Source of the DNA: a virus | Taxonomy: Duplodnaviria; Caudoviricetes | DNA: 64,000 nt | Strand: one strand, 5' to 3' | Virus record (IMG/VR): IMGVR_UViG_3300028591_000020 | Span: 11,596-75,595 of that record | Shown here: piece after piece, positions 36,495-48,589 of the stretch | How positions within the stretch are numbered: position 1 is the stretch's first letter | How the letters are laid out: each line of letters starts with the position of its first letter | The notes under the pieces: model-generated | Seen by the model: only the letters and a program-made list of their open reading frames with translations | Database searches by the model: none | Told to the model about the DNA's origin: nothing | Program-made: the position numbers and the translations under genes

Positions 36495-36556
36495 CAAAGT
36501 CTCATTGATTTTTGTGGCAAAAAGCTGCAAAAATCGCTCATGTTTCACCAAATATA

Positions 36557-36844
36557 ATGAACGATATGGATAAGTTAAAGAAATTGCAGATGGTAGCCAA
36601 AGTTCTGAGAGATCACCACGGCTACAAAGGTAACAAAGAGTCAGACCATTCCATCAGGTTTAACTTCAAGTTTGACAAGAAGGGCAACATTTGTGGGCCG
36701 TACATAGACATCTATAATGCCGAGAAGGGTGCAAATCTCTTCGTGTGGCCAGAGTTTATCGAGCTGTGTCATGGCTTGGGTCTGAGCCATTACATTACCT
36801 ATGACAAATATGACCTCAAAGAGGTGGTGCTACACATCTACTAA
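36557..36844 (+). CDS. Hypothetical early protein
   Basis: 95 aa cassette-like ORF flanked by modules. Confidence 0.65.
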   Translation: MNDMDKLKKLQMVAKVLRDHHGYKGNKESDHSIRFNFKFDKKGNICGPYIDIYNAEKGANLFVWPEFIELCHGLGLSHYITYDKYDLKEVVLHIY

Positions 36845-36895
36845 GTCTCACGGCTCCATCAGGAGCCACTATTATTCACCAAATAACGAACGAGT

Positions 36896-37159
36896 ATGAA
36901 ACAGAGAGTAATCAAAACGACTGCAATCTTCCGTTGCATCGTAACATTCAAGGATGGTGCACACAAAATCATCCGCATGACCATTGACAAGGTAGCGCAT
37001 TTCGTGTATCTTTTCAGACAGCAGGAGAGAAATATCTTCGTGGATGAAACATGTCTCTTCGAGATGTGCGAAAACGAGTGGTTATGTATGTCATCTGTAG
37101 CCGGTGCCAAATTCATCAATGACCGCACCGACCAGGAATTTCTCAGTATCAGTCTTTAA
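36896..37159 (+). CDS. Hypothetical early protein
   Basis: 87 aa flanked by modules. Confidence 0.65.
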   Translation: MKQRVIKTTAIFRCIVTFKDGAHKIIRMTIDKVAHFVYLFRQQERNIFVDETCLFEMCENEWLCMSSVAGAKFINDRTDQEFLSISL

Positions 37160-37211
37160 AGGGTGGGTACATTTTGTACCCCTCCCACAACAAACCAATA
37201 ATTATTGAACG

Positions 37212-37379
37212 ATGGTAGTAAACAAGATTCTCCGCAACAAGTGCGGATTTTGGTATGTGGGCCGTCTTCTGACTGTTGATCCCGATGGTGTTCCCGTCTA
37301 TCAGAGGTTGTCAGATGATTACGTCTACAAAGGATGGGCATTGAACTTTGCCCGTCGTATGTGTATCAAGCTATCGTAG
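37212..37379 (+). CDS. Small hypothetical early protein (55 aa, not in ORF track)
   Basis: MVVNKILRNKCGFWYVG... flanked by modules. Confidence 0.55.
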   Translation: MVVNKILRNKCGFWYVGRLLTVDPDGVPVYQRLSDDYVYKGWALNFARRMCIKLS

Positions 37380-37452
37380 CCTTTTTGGCATGGGTTGGTT
37401 TTATTTCGTTCGTTCGCCTGCCTGTGCTGCTATTCACCAATACTATACGAAT

Positions 37453-37911
37453 ATGTTACCATCAGAATTTTATGACAGGACGCATATCAAGCTCTCCGGA
37501 GATGAATATGCAGACGTAGAGAACATCTACAACAATGTGGAGATGCAAAAGGATGACTTCTGCCAGCATTGGGTTGAAGAGAAAGAAAATCCTCTGTTCA
37601 AGGAGTTGGCCAAAGCATTCTGCAAGCAGACGAAAGAGCTGTTGCAGACTCAGAGCGACCTCGGCACCATCGAGCACAAATACAAGAGCGAGATTGAGGC
37701 CATTAAAAAGGAGAATGAGCGCATCCTCTCTGACAAGGAAGAGGCTCACAAATCTCTGGGTCGTAAGATTATTGAGAATATCGACGACGAAGTACGTTTG
37801 CACGATATTCTTGAGGAAGAGTTCACGATAGATTTCATCATCAAGGTCAAGCTGTATAATGACATGGAGCTTGAGCGTAGTGAGCGAGACTATCTAATCG
37901 GTAAGCTTTAG
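37453..37911 (+). CDS. Hypothetical coiled-coil early protein
   Basis: Starts at a GAATATG leader. Confidence 0.65.
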   Translation: MLPSEFYDRTHIKLSGDEYADVENIYNNVEMQKDDFCQHWVEEKENPLFKELAKAFCKQTKELLQTQSDLGTIEHKYKSEIEAIKKENERILSDKEEAHKSLGRKIIENIDDEVRLHDILEEEFTIDFIIKVKLYNDMELERSERDYLIGKL

Positions 37912-37959
37912 TCTTTAGGAGCCTTGAACGGCTCCACTATTCACCAAATATGTAAGAAT

Positions 37960-45820: not shown

Positions 45821-45840
45821 CCAACAAATGACCAACAATT

Positions 45841-46056
45841 ATGTTATACACCGACGTTCAAGCTCAGGAACTCGTAGGGCAGGTTCTCGAATCTCTCAAC
45901 GAGGATGGCCGTTATCCTCTCCATGAGGGAGATATGGGCTACTACAAGAATGCCAATGGAATCTGGACGGCTTGGGATAATTCTACAGGCGACTGCTGGG
46001 TAGAGGATTTCAAGACCCGAAAGGAGGCCATTGAATGGTTAGGAAATGTTAATTAG
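45841..46056 (+). CDS. Small hypothetical protein
   Basis: WTAWDNSTGDCWVEDFKT...AIEWL motif. Confidence 0.65.
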   Translation: MLYTDVQAQELVGQVLESLNEDGRYPLHEGDMGYYKNANGIWTAWDNSTGDCWVEDFKTRKEAIEWLGNVN

Positions 46057-46096
46057 TCTTTTTATCCTGCATGACATTTGCCGTGCAGGATGCAAC

Positions 46097-46219
46097 TCAC
46101 ACAGCAACTCACACACTGATTCACACAGTAATTCACACACTTAACACATTGTGTATCAAAGAGTTAATGCAAAACATCACACACCAATTCACACAGCGAT
46201 TCACACACTAACTCACACA
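46097..46219 (+). repeat. Iteron-like array: 2 blocks of 4 TCACACA at 12-bp period, followed by an AT-rich tract
   Basis: Copies at 46097, 46109, 46121, 46133, 46177, 46189, 46201, 46213. Confidence 0.85.
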
Positions 46220-46379
46220 ATCGCGCGTGTGTATATAAAGGTACGTGCGCGTTTATTGTTATATAATAAATATATATTCTACCAGTATATATATACTTGT
46301 TCAAAAACGACTTTTTGTCTCTGATGTTAAAAATTCAGAAAACATCCTATATTATAAACCAAATTATTAATTTTGCAAT

Positions 46380-47354
46380 ATGAAAGAATTAAGAGGTCTC
46401 AGTTTAGACCAAAACAAGAAGTTCAAGTTCGCTATAGAATGCGGATATTTGGACGATTGGGAAACTGACCCACGAAAATGGAAACATACTTTCGTAGGTG
46501 CTTTCCTATGGAAATATCCCTCAAGGGTTAAAATCCTGAATATCCTCAAGGATATTATAGGCAACATACCTACGTGGGGTGACTTGAATGACGAGACATT
46601 ACGCGACCTCGTAGATGAACTGATAGAGCAGGGCCTTGCCACGTCATCCATCAGAACGATGTGTGCAGAGCTGAAAGTGGTACTCAATGAGAATGTGAAA
46701 AAAGTACCATGCGACAGCTTCCAGAAGATATTGTCTGTGAAGGGGTCGGCAACAAAGCCAGTCTATCTGACGAGTAGCGAAATGGAACTCCTTCTTGCTT
46801 TCAAGCCTCGTACAGAGACGGAACACTACGTGCATCGTAACTTCTGCGTCTCTATGCTCACGGGCGCAAGGCTTGTAGATACATTGAAGCTAACCATCAG
46901 TAATTGTGACATTGAAACAAATATGCTGTCATACATTCCTCAGAAGACTCCTGGCATTGTCGTACACGTTCCCGTTGATGAACGGCACCACCTGCGAACG
47001 TTCCTTGCAGATATACCAAAGAACGACAGGTGCCTTGATACGTACAACGAGGTCATACGACGCATCTGTGAGCTTGTTGGCATTGACACGGTATGTAATG
47101 CCGTCAAGGCAGGAAAGGACGTGACAGCACCAAAGTATCAGCTTGTCAGCTCTCATACAGCACGTCGCTCCTTTGCGACGAATCTATATTTGGCTGGTGT
47201 GTCGCTCGAAGACATATCCATGATGATGGGCCACGGCAAGAATATCGAGACAACAAAACGGTATATCTGTGCAGAGCGTGCGCTGAATCCAAACGTCATG
47301 TCATACTTCCAGCAGCCAGTCACCACTCCCTCTGAACTATCAGAGGTTGGTTAG
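46380..47354 (+). CDS. Tyrosine recombinase without an evident arm-binding domain
   Basis: TGAR, HTARR, MMGH and RY catalytic residues; 324 aa. Confidence 0.9.
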   Translation: MKELRGLSLDQNKKFKFAIECGYLDDWETDPRKWKHTFVGAFLWKYPSRVKILNILKDIIGNIPTWGDLNDETLRDLVDELIEQGLATSSIRTMCAELKVVLNENVKKVPCDSFQKILSVKGSATKPVYLTSSEMELLLAFKPRTETEHYVHRNFCVSMLTGARLVDTLKLTISNCDIETNMLSYIPQKTPGIVVHVPVDERHHLRTFLADIPKNDRCLDTYNEVIRRICELVGIDTVCNAVKAGKDVTAPKYQLVSSHTARRSFATNLYLAGVSLEDISMMMGHGKNIETTKRYICAERALNPNVMSYFQQPVTTPSELSEVG

Positions 47355-47356
47355 TC

Positions 47357-48589
47357 TCAAGGCAGGGTTTTCCCTGCCACAAAATCAACCACTCTTCTCA
47401 CAGCATTGTCTATCTTACGCTGGTCATGGGCGATATAACGTGCCGTAACGCGCTTACTCCAAGAATGCCCGAGACACTGGCCGATAGTCTGCTCACTGAT
47501 GTCAAGGTCGTTTGCAGCTATTGATCCGAACGAGTAGCGTGCTGAATAGAGTGTGATGTCAGGACAGAGTGGTGCATACTCCATCTTTCGGAGCTTACCT
47601 ACTTTGTCCTTTACCTTCCAGCTTGGACCAACCTTCTGCAGAGCTTCGTTGGCTTGCTTGGCGAACGAGTGATAGTCGCTCCTGCAGTCCATAAAACTAA
47701 CGAGCCAGCCCTCTCTCGAAGGATAGCGGTCAATAATCTCCTGCGCCTCTGGCAGTACTGGCAGGGTGATGACACGAATCTTCGTCACACCTTCCTTATT
47801 CGTTTTCTTTCTGATAAACGAGATGTGGCCATCCTTGATGCTGTCTGCTTTGAGCGATAGCAGGTCAACGGGATTGATGCCTGCAAGGTAGAACGATAGG
47901 AAGAAGAAGTCAACGTATGGCCGTTGCCACGGCTCACAAGGATAATCTCTGAGTCGTCTCAGTTCCTCGACGGAAAGATTGTTGGGAACTGTCTCTTCCT
48001 CTCTGATGTGATAGTCCAGGAAAGGATAGTTTGTGGTCATTCCCTTGCGTCTGGCCCAATTGAACACAGCACGGATATTCCTCAGTTCCTTTGCCACGCC
48101 ATTTATCTTCATGCCATGCTTGATGCAGTGGTCATAGAACGAGTCCATCCAGTCTTTTTCGATTGAAAAATCAGCGTTTCGATCGAACGATTCCACCTTC
48201 CTCGCTGTTATCCTATACAAAACAGCCGTTTGTTCCCTTTTTGTGGCGGCGAACGATTGGATAGCATCTGACAGGGCGAACGGCTTGGCTTTCTTCTGAA
48301 TGCCGAAAACCTCATTCAAAATACGCTCCTTGAGTTCTTTGTTGCTCAGCCCTGCAATATCCCGTTCGAGACATAGCGAGGTTACAGAGGCGAAATATTT
48401 GCCCAATAGGATAGTCTTACGCTTCCAATCTCTATCAGACTTTGGAAACGACATCTCAACCAGCTTATCACATGTAGTGATGCCAGTGTTCACGAAAAAT
48501 CTGCCCTGCTTCGTACTGACGATGAAGTACACAGGGAAAGAGCCGTCTTTGTTCGCTCTTGTTGTGTTTACATAAGGATAAATCTTCAT
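47357..48589 (-). CDS. int: Phage integrase (tyrosine family)
   Basis: 410 aa; N-terminal arm-binding-type beta domain; YSARYS, LGHSW and RY (variant residues); adjacent to attP. Confidence 0.9.
   Translation of the reverse strand: MKIYPYVNTTRANKDGSFPVYFIVSTKQGRFFVNTGITTCDKLVEMSFPKSDRDWKRKTILLGKYFASVTSLCLERDIAGLSNKELKERILNEVFGIQKKAKPFALSDAIQSFAATKREQTAVLYRITARKVESFDRNADFSIEKDWMDSFYDHCIKHGMKINGVAKELRNIRAVFNWARRKGMTTNYPFLDYHIREEETVPNNLSVEELRRLRDYPCEPWQRPYVDFFFLSFYLAGINPVDLLSLKADSIKDGHISFIRKKTNKEGVTKIRVITLPVLPEAQEIIDRYPSREGWLVSFMDCRSDYHSFAKQANEALQKVGPSWKVKDKVGKLRKMEYAPLCPDITLYSARYSFGSIAANDLDISEQTIGQCLGHSWSKRVTARYIAHDQRKIDNAVRRVVDFVAGKTLP

Follow-up and report, generated by a model that had tools for sequence, protein, structure and literature searches.

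An array of about 30 small genes in the virus record IMGVR_UViG_3300028591_000020 is punctuated, at 18 gene boundaries between 36.5 and 47.4 kb, by a module of about 55 bases in which AG(T/C)CT is followed by 2-5 nucleotides (nt), a 6-13 bp hairpin, an AACC/CACC box and GAAT(T)ATG. The record is 75,595 bp long, with direct terminal repeats and a completeness estimate of 100%; the window analyzed here is a 64-kb stretch of it, in which the array lies on the + strand and runs toward a convergent integrase gene. On balance, we think it probable that the modules are RNA-level gene-end and gene-start punctuation and that they double as recombination joints, in a manner resembling promoter-early stem-loop (PeSL) cassettes. 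Judging from its gene content, and because its close relative L123 is a prophage beside a tRNA gene in the metagenome-assembled genome (MAG) of a Prevotella sp. from roe-deer abomasum (recombinase 82% identical), the virus is a temperate, siphovirus-like phage of rumen or gut Prevotella. An earlier interpretation made from the letters of the window (the sequence-only reading) had called the array genes 'early', a label that we treat as an assumption.

The modules begin at 36498, 36844, 37151, 37378, 37910, 38359, 39300, 39785, 40175, 40703, 41675, 42155, 42710, 43295, 44095, 45063, 46055 and 47353, all on the + strand. The same 18 hairpin modules had been proposed by the sequence-only reading, and direct reading together with pattern scans confirms that they are real. 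Under a strict definition (AG[TC]CT, at most 9 nt, then a perfect stem of at least 6 bp), positions 36400-47500 contain 14 copies, compared with 0.50 ± 0.73 in 200 dinucleotide shuffles. When a downstream [AC]ACC is also required, there are 12 copies compared with 0.04 in shuffles, and across the whole 75.6-kb genome this definition finds 12 on the + strand and none on the − strand. In 67 distinct modules taken from five phages, the spacer between pentamer and stem is 2-5 nt in 62 (mode 3 nt), stems are 6-13 bp long, loops mostly have 4 or 6 nt, and the loop TTGCAT occurs 12 times. The hairpins are 17-35 nt long, with mostly perfect stems and folding free energies of −8 to −16 kcal/mol. The gene-start half is a G-poor leader bearing CUAUUAACC, AAACCAA or UUCACCAA, with GAAT(T)ATG 11-19 nt on and an A at −3, a Kozak-like start context as described for Bacteroidia (PMC6847099). 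Genes with a module behind them (36.8-47.4 kb) mostly end in TAG because this codon overlaps the pentamer (TAGTCT); TAA and TGA stops are followed by a separate AGTCT. Genes that overlap or abut the preceding stop (38202, 39553, 40565 and 43896) have no module.

Pairing within the hairpins is conserved although their sequences are free to vary. A covariance model built from 54 modules was searched against 146 kb in five phages (E ≤ 1) and returned 50 matches, all on the gene strand and all within arrays. In the covariance-model alignment, 74% of paired cells were complementary, compared with 45.5% after shuffling, and the covariation score of 0.646 (0.218 when shuffled) was reached by none of 500 shuffles; compensatory changes occurred at 7 of 7 pairs, and slid controls fell sharply. 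The alignment was fitted to the model, hence these figures lean toward structure. Independent support comes from orthologous positions that hold unrelated yet fully paired stems, such as the hairpin 3′ of the recombinase gene in five phages (L119-L123 included). MAFFT followed by RNAalifold yielded no consensus fold, since the modules have their stems in different registers; the structure was then supplied to the covariance model.

The pattern of substitutions also points to sense (coding-strand) RNA as the strand that folds. Every Watson-Crick pair can change by one transition to G·U and by one to A·C, so that an excess of G·U indicates that pairing is kept on the coding strand, as expected for mRNA. 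When 207 different hairpins with perfect pairing were compared with their close variants (at most 5 differences, similar flanks), single-arm stem changes produced 34 G·U and 5 A·C pairs, or 16 and 5 after repeats of the same variant were collapsed (two-sided p = 0.027). Two other counts, 15:7 on ad hoc stem extensions and 33:22 on the model-fitted alignment (p = 0.09), showed no clear bias, and we rely on the variant-based count. Its excess of G·U argues against folding of the bottom strand and against symmetric recognition of double-stranded DNA.

The module consists of two separable halves. Gene-end halves occur by themselves at 46055 and 47353, as does a box at ~33990. A 341-bp patch (40206-40546, matching 4719-5059 in L123) that spans the box and most of the WYL_2 gene is 98% identical to L123 against a background of 76-87%. 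Its edge at 40206 lies exactly at the box, right after the hairpin, and the hairpin and upstream gene at this place are unrelated to those of L123; the patch looks like a recent exchange between lineages. A unit of box, 304-amino-acid gene, AGTCT and hairpin (~40730-41702) is missing from L123, with the junction immediately 3′ of a hairpin. The hairpin at 40711-40729, with a CAAAGGA loop, is identical in this phage, L120, L121 and L123; the gene on its 5′ side is a diverged 45-amino-acid gene, and the boxes and genes on its 3′ side differ.

The sequence-only reading had proposed that related genomes be aligned to see whether breakpoints of gene gain, loss or reordering fall at the pentamer and hairpin. 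Breakpoints do cluster at the modules, but they fall at several landmarks, and gene order is largely kept. Arrays have 23-31 genes, of which this phage has 10 in common with L123 and 9 with L120; shared genes are collinear (10/10, 9/9, 7/7 and 24/24), and the few order changes involve distant relatives only. Taking the internal ends of alignments of at least 88% identity in 1.1 Mb of related loci as breakpoints, about 28% lay no more than 100 nt from a recognised box, a zone that makes up 10.7% of the total sequence. Relative to the box start, they peaked over the stop codon and pentamer (−40 to −30), at the hairpin/box junction (−1 to +1), at the box end (+11) and at the start codon (+27 to +32). 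Several peaks fit exchange by homologous or annealing-type recombination between short conserved words, or the mere survival of intergenic joints, and argue against a single enzymatic crossover point.

The same design recurs in related phages. Four of them, found via the recombinase (L119, L120, L121 and L123), have 13-23 loose pentamer-plus-hairpin matches each, mostly true modules with a few chance matches within genes. Three distant relatives (L122, L130 and L131; recombinase ~40% identical) carry a sister form, stop-AGCC(A/T)AA, hairpin, CTATTAACCAA, GAATTATG, in which the loops are again often TTGCAT or TAGCAT. This sister clade (stop-AGCCWAA / hairpin / CTATTAACCAAW) was reached both via the box pattern in IMG/VR and via Prevotella genomes and belongs to the same module family; the phage described here represents the AGTCT clade, whose boxes (ATTAACCCC, AAACCAA, TTCACCAA) are more varied. 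A strict 19-base box-plus-start pattern, independent of any protein, found at least 120 stretches in IMG/VR, many with multiple matches, and among the box-plus-start matches listed, 145 of 176 had a hairpin of at least 6 bp ending no more than 7 nt upstream. By these pattern matches, the module is spread over a large family of gut and rumen Prevotella phages. No match to the array was found among GenBank phages by megablast, and none by a search for relatives with the 304-amino-acid array protein; the IMG/VR pattern AGTCT...TATTAACCCC gave single, chance-level matches only, and the recombinase was present in only 4 of 401 sampled genomes of the genus Prevotella.

We propose that the module is a two-part punctuation mark on a long, co-directional accessory-gene transcript. 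Host RNA polymerase would probably start at a promoter cluster at 33.3-34.0 kb and read through the array, since the hairpins have no U-tracts. The gene-end part, AG(U/C)CU at or just past the stop codon followed by a stable RNA hairpin of free sequence, would act as a barrier to 3′ exonucleases, and the fixed-distance pentamer may make the hairpins determinants of an endonuclease cut. The gene-start part, a G-poor leader with the box and then GAAU(U)AUG, would stay unpaired and open to ribosomes, which in this host do not rely on Shine-Dalgarno sequences; the hairpins would keep it so by locking up G/C-rich sequence nearby. Because the same short conserved words bracket every gene, modules could also serve as gene-exchange sites, at which homologous or annealing-type recombination, perhaps by the phage RecT-family protein, would swap, add or remove single genes. 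Two of the three functions that the sequence-only reading had offered thus combine as the best explanation. Sites of RNA processing or stabilization are consistent with the evidence, with processing itself predicted from sequence features, and PeSL-like cassettes agree in stem-loop order, hyperplastic setting and breakpoints within the motifs, although the module has no recognisable host promoter.

Several observations weigh against this proposal. The spacings are loose, at 11-19 nt from box to ATG and 4-11 nt from hairpin to box, and a non-coding unit at 41.7-42.15 kb keeps a box at its 5′ end, which would be needless if the box were purely translational. The pentamer differs between two clades that both infect Prevotella (AGTCT and AGCC(A/T)AA), a difference that is easier to reconcile with a reader encoded by the phage than with a host RNase; the WYL_2 protein, which has an Sm-like fold (40233-40568), was considered as a universal trans-acting reader and rejected, being present in the AGTCT clade only (4 of 32 records). 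Because modules fill the intergenic space, clustering of breakpoints is also expected from selection for intact genes, and the extension of alignments through conserved words blurs exact breakpoint positions. Finally, direct observation extends to the architecture, strand bias, covariation, sense-strand wobble bias, lack of host promoter and terminator features, phage specificity, conservation across the family and clustering of breakpoints; from these sequence patterns we infer read-through, the RNA ends, processing or stabilization, what the box does in translation and how the genes recombine.

If the AACC box were instead a non-canonical promoter, read by host polymerase together with a phage or alternative host factor, and each hairpin attenuated or terminated transcription, the modules would be terminator-promoter cassettes, full analogues of PeSLs, and each gene would be its own, moron-like transcription unit. 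We regard this as rather unlikely. The order of stop, stem-loop, conserved box and start is that of a PeSL (PMC2839356). Box-gene-hairpin units also act as autonomous blocks in comparisons, the non-coding 41.7-kb unit keeps its box, and the box is phage-specific, AACC being absent from the A/T-rich leaders of host ribosomal-protein genes. AAC-containing −35 elements are typical of extracytoplasmic function (ECF) sigma promoters, which counts on the same side. However, the Bacteroidota −7 element TAnnTTTG, alone or as TTTG...TAnnTTTG, occurs in 0 of 18 modules, while it is enriched in the window as a whole (67 compared with 37 expected). A search of the genome for sigma-factor domains (Sigma70_r2 or r4_2) found none, and a single-subunit phage polymerase was rejected as the reader of the box, which resembles the start of a T3-type promoter, there being no open reading frame (ORF) of such a size outside the structural genes.

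The operon head (33302-33999, +) carries TAnnTTTG at 33302, 33492, 33508, 33584 (with a −33 TTTG) and 33960, then a hairpin-less ATTAACCAA box at ~33990 and the gene at 34058. The cluster of promoter elements (33302-33967) falls in an AT-rich, ORF-free stretch of 0.8 kb between leftward replication genes and the rightward array, and is likely a divergent promoter region. Here, and before the L130 recombinase gene, the box lies just 3′ of a canonical −7 element and hence in the transcribed leader, and its spacing to GAAT is variable, both of which speak against a promoter box. The hairpins also differ from Rho-independent terminators, in which a U-tract directly follows a GC-rich hairpin. As the sequence-only reading had correctly noted, there is no U-tract: the 8-nt tails after the stems start with AC or C and average about 2 T (range 0-4), compared with T-rich tails after host gene-end hairpins (mean 4.2 in a sample of five). 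By these features, the modules do not appear to be host promoters or classical terminators. RNase P-like recognition (hairpin plus ACCA), stimulation of stop-codon read-through or frameshifting, and 16S complementarity were also considered and dropped, as the required features were inconsistent across modules.

A tyrosine recombinase gene (324 amino acids, Xer-like; 46380-47354, +), with a TAATTTTG element 4 nt 5′ of its ATG, lies at the distal end of the array, and the sequence-only reading had put forward an integron-like array served by this neighbouring enzyme. The recombinase, or another enzyme, would then read the pentamer and folded hairpin in single-stranded DNA and excise or insert single-gene cassettes. 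We found little to sustain this idea and consider it very unlikely; we give equally little credence to the idea that the array is a cassette exchanger of integron-like logic carried by the phage, with an origin independent of IntI/attC and a distal recombinase that reads the pentamer and hairpin as folded single-stranded nucleic acid. The association itself is real. Of 37 related records, 31 have an orthologue of the recombinase, as do 11 of the 12 array-bearing records with a completeness of 90% or more, among them records found via the box motif alone, and the gene is always at the array end. G408, which is 99% complete and has no recombinase, has no array; in G428, which has an array and no recombinase, the array is cut by the contig end. 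Among the related records, we found no clean case of a complete array-bearing genome without the recombinase gene, or of the gene without an array. All array phages belong to one family, so this co-occurrence is confounded by common descent, and our estimate stays low for that reason. The position of cassette indel junctions immediately 3′ of a hairpin, the tight pentamer-stem distance, a pentamer that is clade-specific like the recombinase, and a few order changes between distant relatives would also fit.

Most features of the enzyme and its supposed sites differ from those of integrons. The recombinase scores 31.6 bits (cut-off 265) and 15.7 bits (cut-off 435) against the integron-integrase profiles TIGR02249 and PRK15417. 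It is distal, on the same strand as the cassettes, with its own promoter element and no integron-type signature, whereas an integron integrase adjoins attI at the promoter-proximal end and diverges from the cassettes. An attC site is ~57-141 nt long, with inverse core sites (R″/R′ and L″/L′) and extrahelical bases; here, the flanks (AGTCT and ACTATT/box) are not inverse repeats, there are no extrahelical bases, and stems of 6-13 bp leave too little room for a pair of recombinase binding sites. The wobble bias (G·U 16, A·C 5) favours the coding strand, opposite to the bottom-strand folding of attC. Breakpoints occur at four or more module positions, and shared genes are almost always collinear. 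Integron cassettes change order by excision and re-insertion at attI; between close relatives of this phage family the order is fully kept, and distant ones show a few changes.

A more ordinary candidate substrate adjoins the recombinase gene. Directly 5′ of it is an iteron block (46097-46219, +) with eight copies of TCACACA at a 12-bp period, in two blocks of four, followed by an AT-rich tract; six further copies at 60102-60207 lie inside an ORF (59758-60627) that is a putative replication gene. The arrangement resembles a duplicated origin or iteron cassette, which plausibly provides the recombinase with its substrate or context; a role of the enzyme at such a replication-like element, for example in multimer resolution, would be an ordinary one. 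TAnnTTTG ends 3-8 nt 5′ of the recombinase ATG in five phages (46368-46382 here; orthologues in L119-L123), which suggests a leaderless or near-leaderless mRNA. The L130 recombinase gene instead has TAnnTTTG followed by a leader with an AACCAA box.

Selfish small repeats of the repetitive extragenic palindrome (REP) or miniature inverted-repeat transposable element (MITE) type, sitting in intergenic spaces with no expression benefit, can hardly account for the modules. Their many copies in a single orientation and the recurrence of some stems within a genome (L120 3221 and 4163; the arm swap at 36852 and 37918) would suit such repeats, but stems are mostly unrelated while flanks are conserved, the opposite of copy-and-paste, modules are placed exactly with respect to stop and start codons, they are kept across clades with recombinases only ~40% identical, and no HUH or RAYT-type transposase was seen among the annotated genes. 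They are also absent from the host genome: in a 3.4-Mb host MAG the pattern gave 50 matches, compared with 93 for a control pattern, with the hairpin only in prophage copies. Since the pattern is at or below control outside the prophage, the modules are phage-specific rather than dispersed host repeats of the REP/BIME (bacterial interspersed mosaic element) type.

With these readings weighed, the punctuation account can be followed through the array, where the sequence-only reading's picture of one uniform architecture holds for most modules. A TTCACCAA box is found in module 1 (36498-36556; AGTCT, 13-bp G·U-containing hairpin 36506-36536, start 36557), which has an orthologous module at 822 in L120, in module 2 (36844-36895; AGTCT, hairpin 36852-36867, start 36896) and in module 5 (37910-37959; hairpin 37918-37935, start 37960). 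The arm swap that had been reported between the latter two hairpins is present (GGCTCC/GGAGCC and GGAGCC/GGCTCC). Module 4 (37378-37452) also has TTCACCAA but is atypical, with AGCCT, a poor hairpin and a ~60-nt non-coding block before the box and the start at 37453. AAACCAA serves as the box in module 3 (37151-37211; hairpin 37165-37181, start 37212), module 7 (39300-39351; AGCCT, hairpin 39308-39327 with two G·U pairs, start 39352), module 8 (39785-39844; hairpin 39793-39820, start 39845), module 11 (41675-41720; hairpin 41683-41702) and module 16 (45063-45121; hairpin 45072-45096 with G·U pairs, start 45122 of the RadC-like gene). ATTAACCC occurs in module 6 (38359-38413; hairpin 38366-38387, start 38414), the best covariance-model match at 39.5 bits, and in module 13 (42710-42767; hairpin 42717-42740 across the stop codon, start 42768). 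The loop TTGCAT does recur three times, in modules 6, 7 and 11.

The remaining boxes are ATTAACCCC in module 9 (40175-40232; hairpin 40185-40205, start 40233 of the WYL_2 gene) and module 10 (40703-40761; hairpin 40711-40729, start 40762), ATAACCAA in module 12 (42155-42210; 10-bp hairpin 42163-42186, start 42211 of the PRTase-like gene), ATAACCCC in module 14 (43295-43356; AGCCT, hairpin 43306-43328, start 43357) and TAACCCC in module 15 (44095-44155; hairpin ~44105-44123, start 44156 of the ArdC-like gene). The pentamer was said to lie within the last codons at three places; this is so in modules 3 and 13, and in module 15 the last codons contain the variant CGTCT rather than AG(T/C)CT. Two sites depart from the common architecture in having the pentamer and hairpin only: 46055-46092 (+), with AGTCT, an 11-bp hairpin and the iteron block directly 3′, and the operon end at 47353-47394 (+), with AGTCT and a hairpin (47361-47378) within the 3′ end of the convergent integrase ORF. 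Outside the array, the one copy already noted at 57400 (57400-57458, +; 5′ of the SNF2 helicase gene) is the only one. Covariance model R1 found no copy beyond the array in the window or the first 11.7 kb of the record (E ≤ 1), and AACC boxes 5′ of non-array + strand genes (49969, 55529 and 61396) occur at about chance frequency.

Two stretches of the array appear to be non-coding. The ~60-nt block of module 4 (37378-37440), after a 55-amino-acid gene, is 83-88% identical at the DNA level in this phage, L119, L120 and L123, and the flanking proteins are 39-56% identical. The ~450 nt at 41.7-42.15 kb, between modules 11 and 12, have no conserved ORF, and the L123 counterpart has indels that are not multiples of three; the stretch, which lies just 5′ of the PRTase-like gene, may be a decayed gene or a cassette for a non-coding RNA. 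A core of ~115 nt at ~41916-42029 has one mismatch to L123. A structured RNA at 41.7-42.15 kb was considered and rejected (no Rfam match, fold z-score −0.26).

Elsewhere, the genome encodes a tape-measure protein, major head protein, large terminase, portal and primase, together with a CI-type repressor, an antirepressor, a RecT-family protein (54578-55525), an SNF2 helicase, a cytosine methylase and two tyrosine recombinases. The recognisable array products (ArdC-like, RadC-like, PRTase-like, WYL_2 and DUF4313) are probably anti-defence proteins. The integrase gene (410 amino acids; 47357-48589, −) is convergent with the array and in the Prevotella prophage L123 adjoins a tRNA gene. Past it, a short stretch at 48725-48782 is 84-89% identical in L120 and L121; because the corresponding region of L123 adjoins the tRNA gene, this is likely the attP core. 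Several late genes (tape measure, portal and others; for example at 11157, 25484 and in upstream regions of the genome) have GGATAACAA a few bases 5′ of the ATG, possibly a separate, late-gene type of start-associated word that has a TAAC core in common with the array box. Finally, the words GAACGA and AGTACGA are repeated on the + strand at 34700-36300 and often adjoin start codons (before 34758, 36896 and 37212).

Among known systems, integrons share with the array its mostly single-gene units in one orientation, each followed by a folded element, an adjacent tyrosine recombinase and a unit boundary 3′ of the fold. Unlike integrons, the array lacks an IntI signature, R/L core boxes and extrahelical bases, its recombinase is distal, its gene order is conserved, and the other strand folds. 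The intergenic RNase III processing hairpins of T7 and the REP hairpins inside E. coli operons are free of U-tracts, stand on a read-through transcript and define or protect the 3′ ends of cistrons; the modules, too, are intercistronic and without a U-tract. However, T7 RNase III sites are long irregular stems of ~20 bp or more (two helical turns), and REPs are host-wide sequence repeats, whereas module stems are short (6-13 bp), variable, phage-specific and tied to two conserved single-stranded words.

The start-associated sequences (SAS) of Cluster K mycobacteriophages and their extended form (ESAS) are similar in other respects (Pope et al., 2011; PMC3203893). SAS is a 13-bp GGGATAGGAGCCC word 3-8 nt before the start codon, of unknown function. 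Like the module box, it is a phage-specific, asymmetric word 5′ of non-structural gene starts, in one orientation and absent from the host genome, and it is conserved across subclusters before unrelated genes; about half of SAS copies are preceded by an inverted repeat (PMC3203893). In contrast, SAS has a Shine-Dalgarno core, and ESAS inverted repeats are conserved in sequence and do not covary, for which the authors favour DNA-protein binding (PMC3203893). The module has a different word and a longer spacing, and its stems are free in sequence, covarying and biased toward G·U on the sense strand.

PeSL cassettes of T4-type myoviruses come closest (Arbiol et al., 2010, PMC2839356; Comeau et al., 2014, PMC4122927). 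Both are composite motifs between stop and start codons, co-oriented with the genes, in which a stem-loop precedes a conserved expression signal. Both are concentrated in hyperplastic, ORFan-rich regions (this phage and L123 have 10 of ~30 genes in common), with the breakpoints of indels and replacements in the motifs. PeSLs have a strong host sigma-70 promoter and terminator stem-loops, and form mini-circles between neighbouring motifs (PMC2839356, PMC4122927). The module, in contrast, has neither a host (TAnnTTTG) promoter nor a U-tract, has an extra conserved pentamer 5′ of the stem, and belongs to a temperate siphovirus whose host is one of the Bacteroidota (no Shine-Dalgarno).

Bacteroidota ignore the Shine-Dalgarno sequence and have an unusual promoter code, and the way in which the ends and starts of genes are signalled on the long transcripts of their phages has so far been unknown. 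One compact, phage-specific module, present in dozens of copies per genome and at 120 or more IMG/VR loci by one strict pattern, is a testable candidate for a portable expression signal, combining an RNA end or stability element with a ribosome-loading leader, and a possible genetic part for Prevotella and Bacteroides. Modules that serve as exchange joints would account for the renewal of accessory genes with each gene kept expressible. They would also mean that the PeSL principle, described for lytic T4-type phages of Proteobacteria, holds as well for temperate siphoviruses that infect a different phylum. By analogy, the modules are most likely the functional counterpart of PeSLs, minus the host promoter and terminator.

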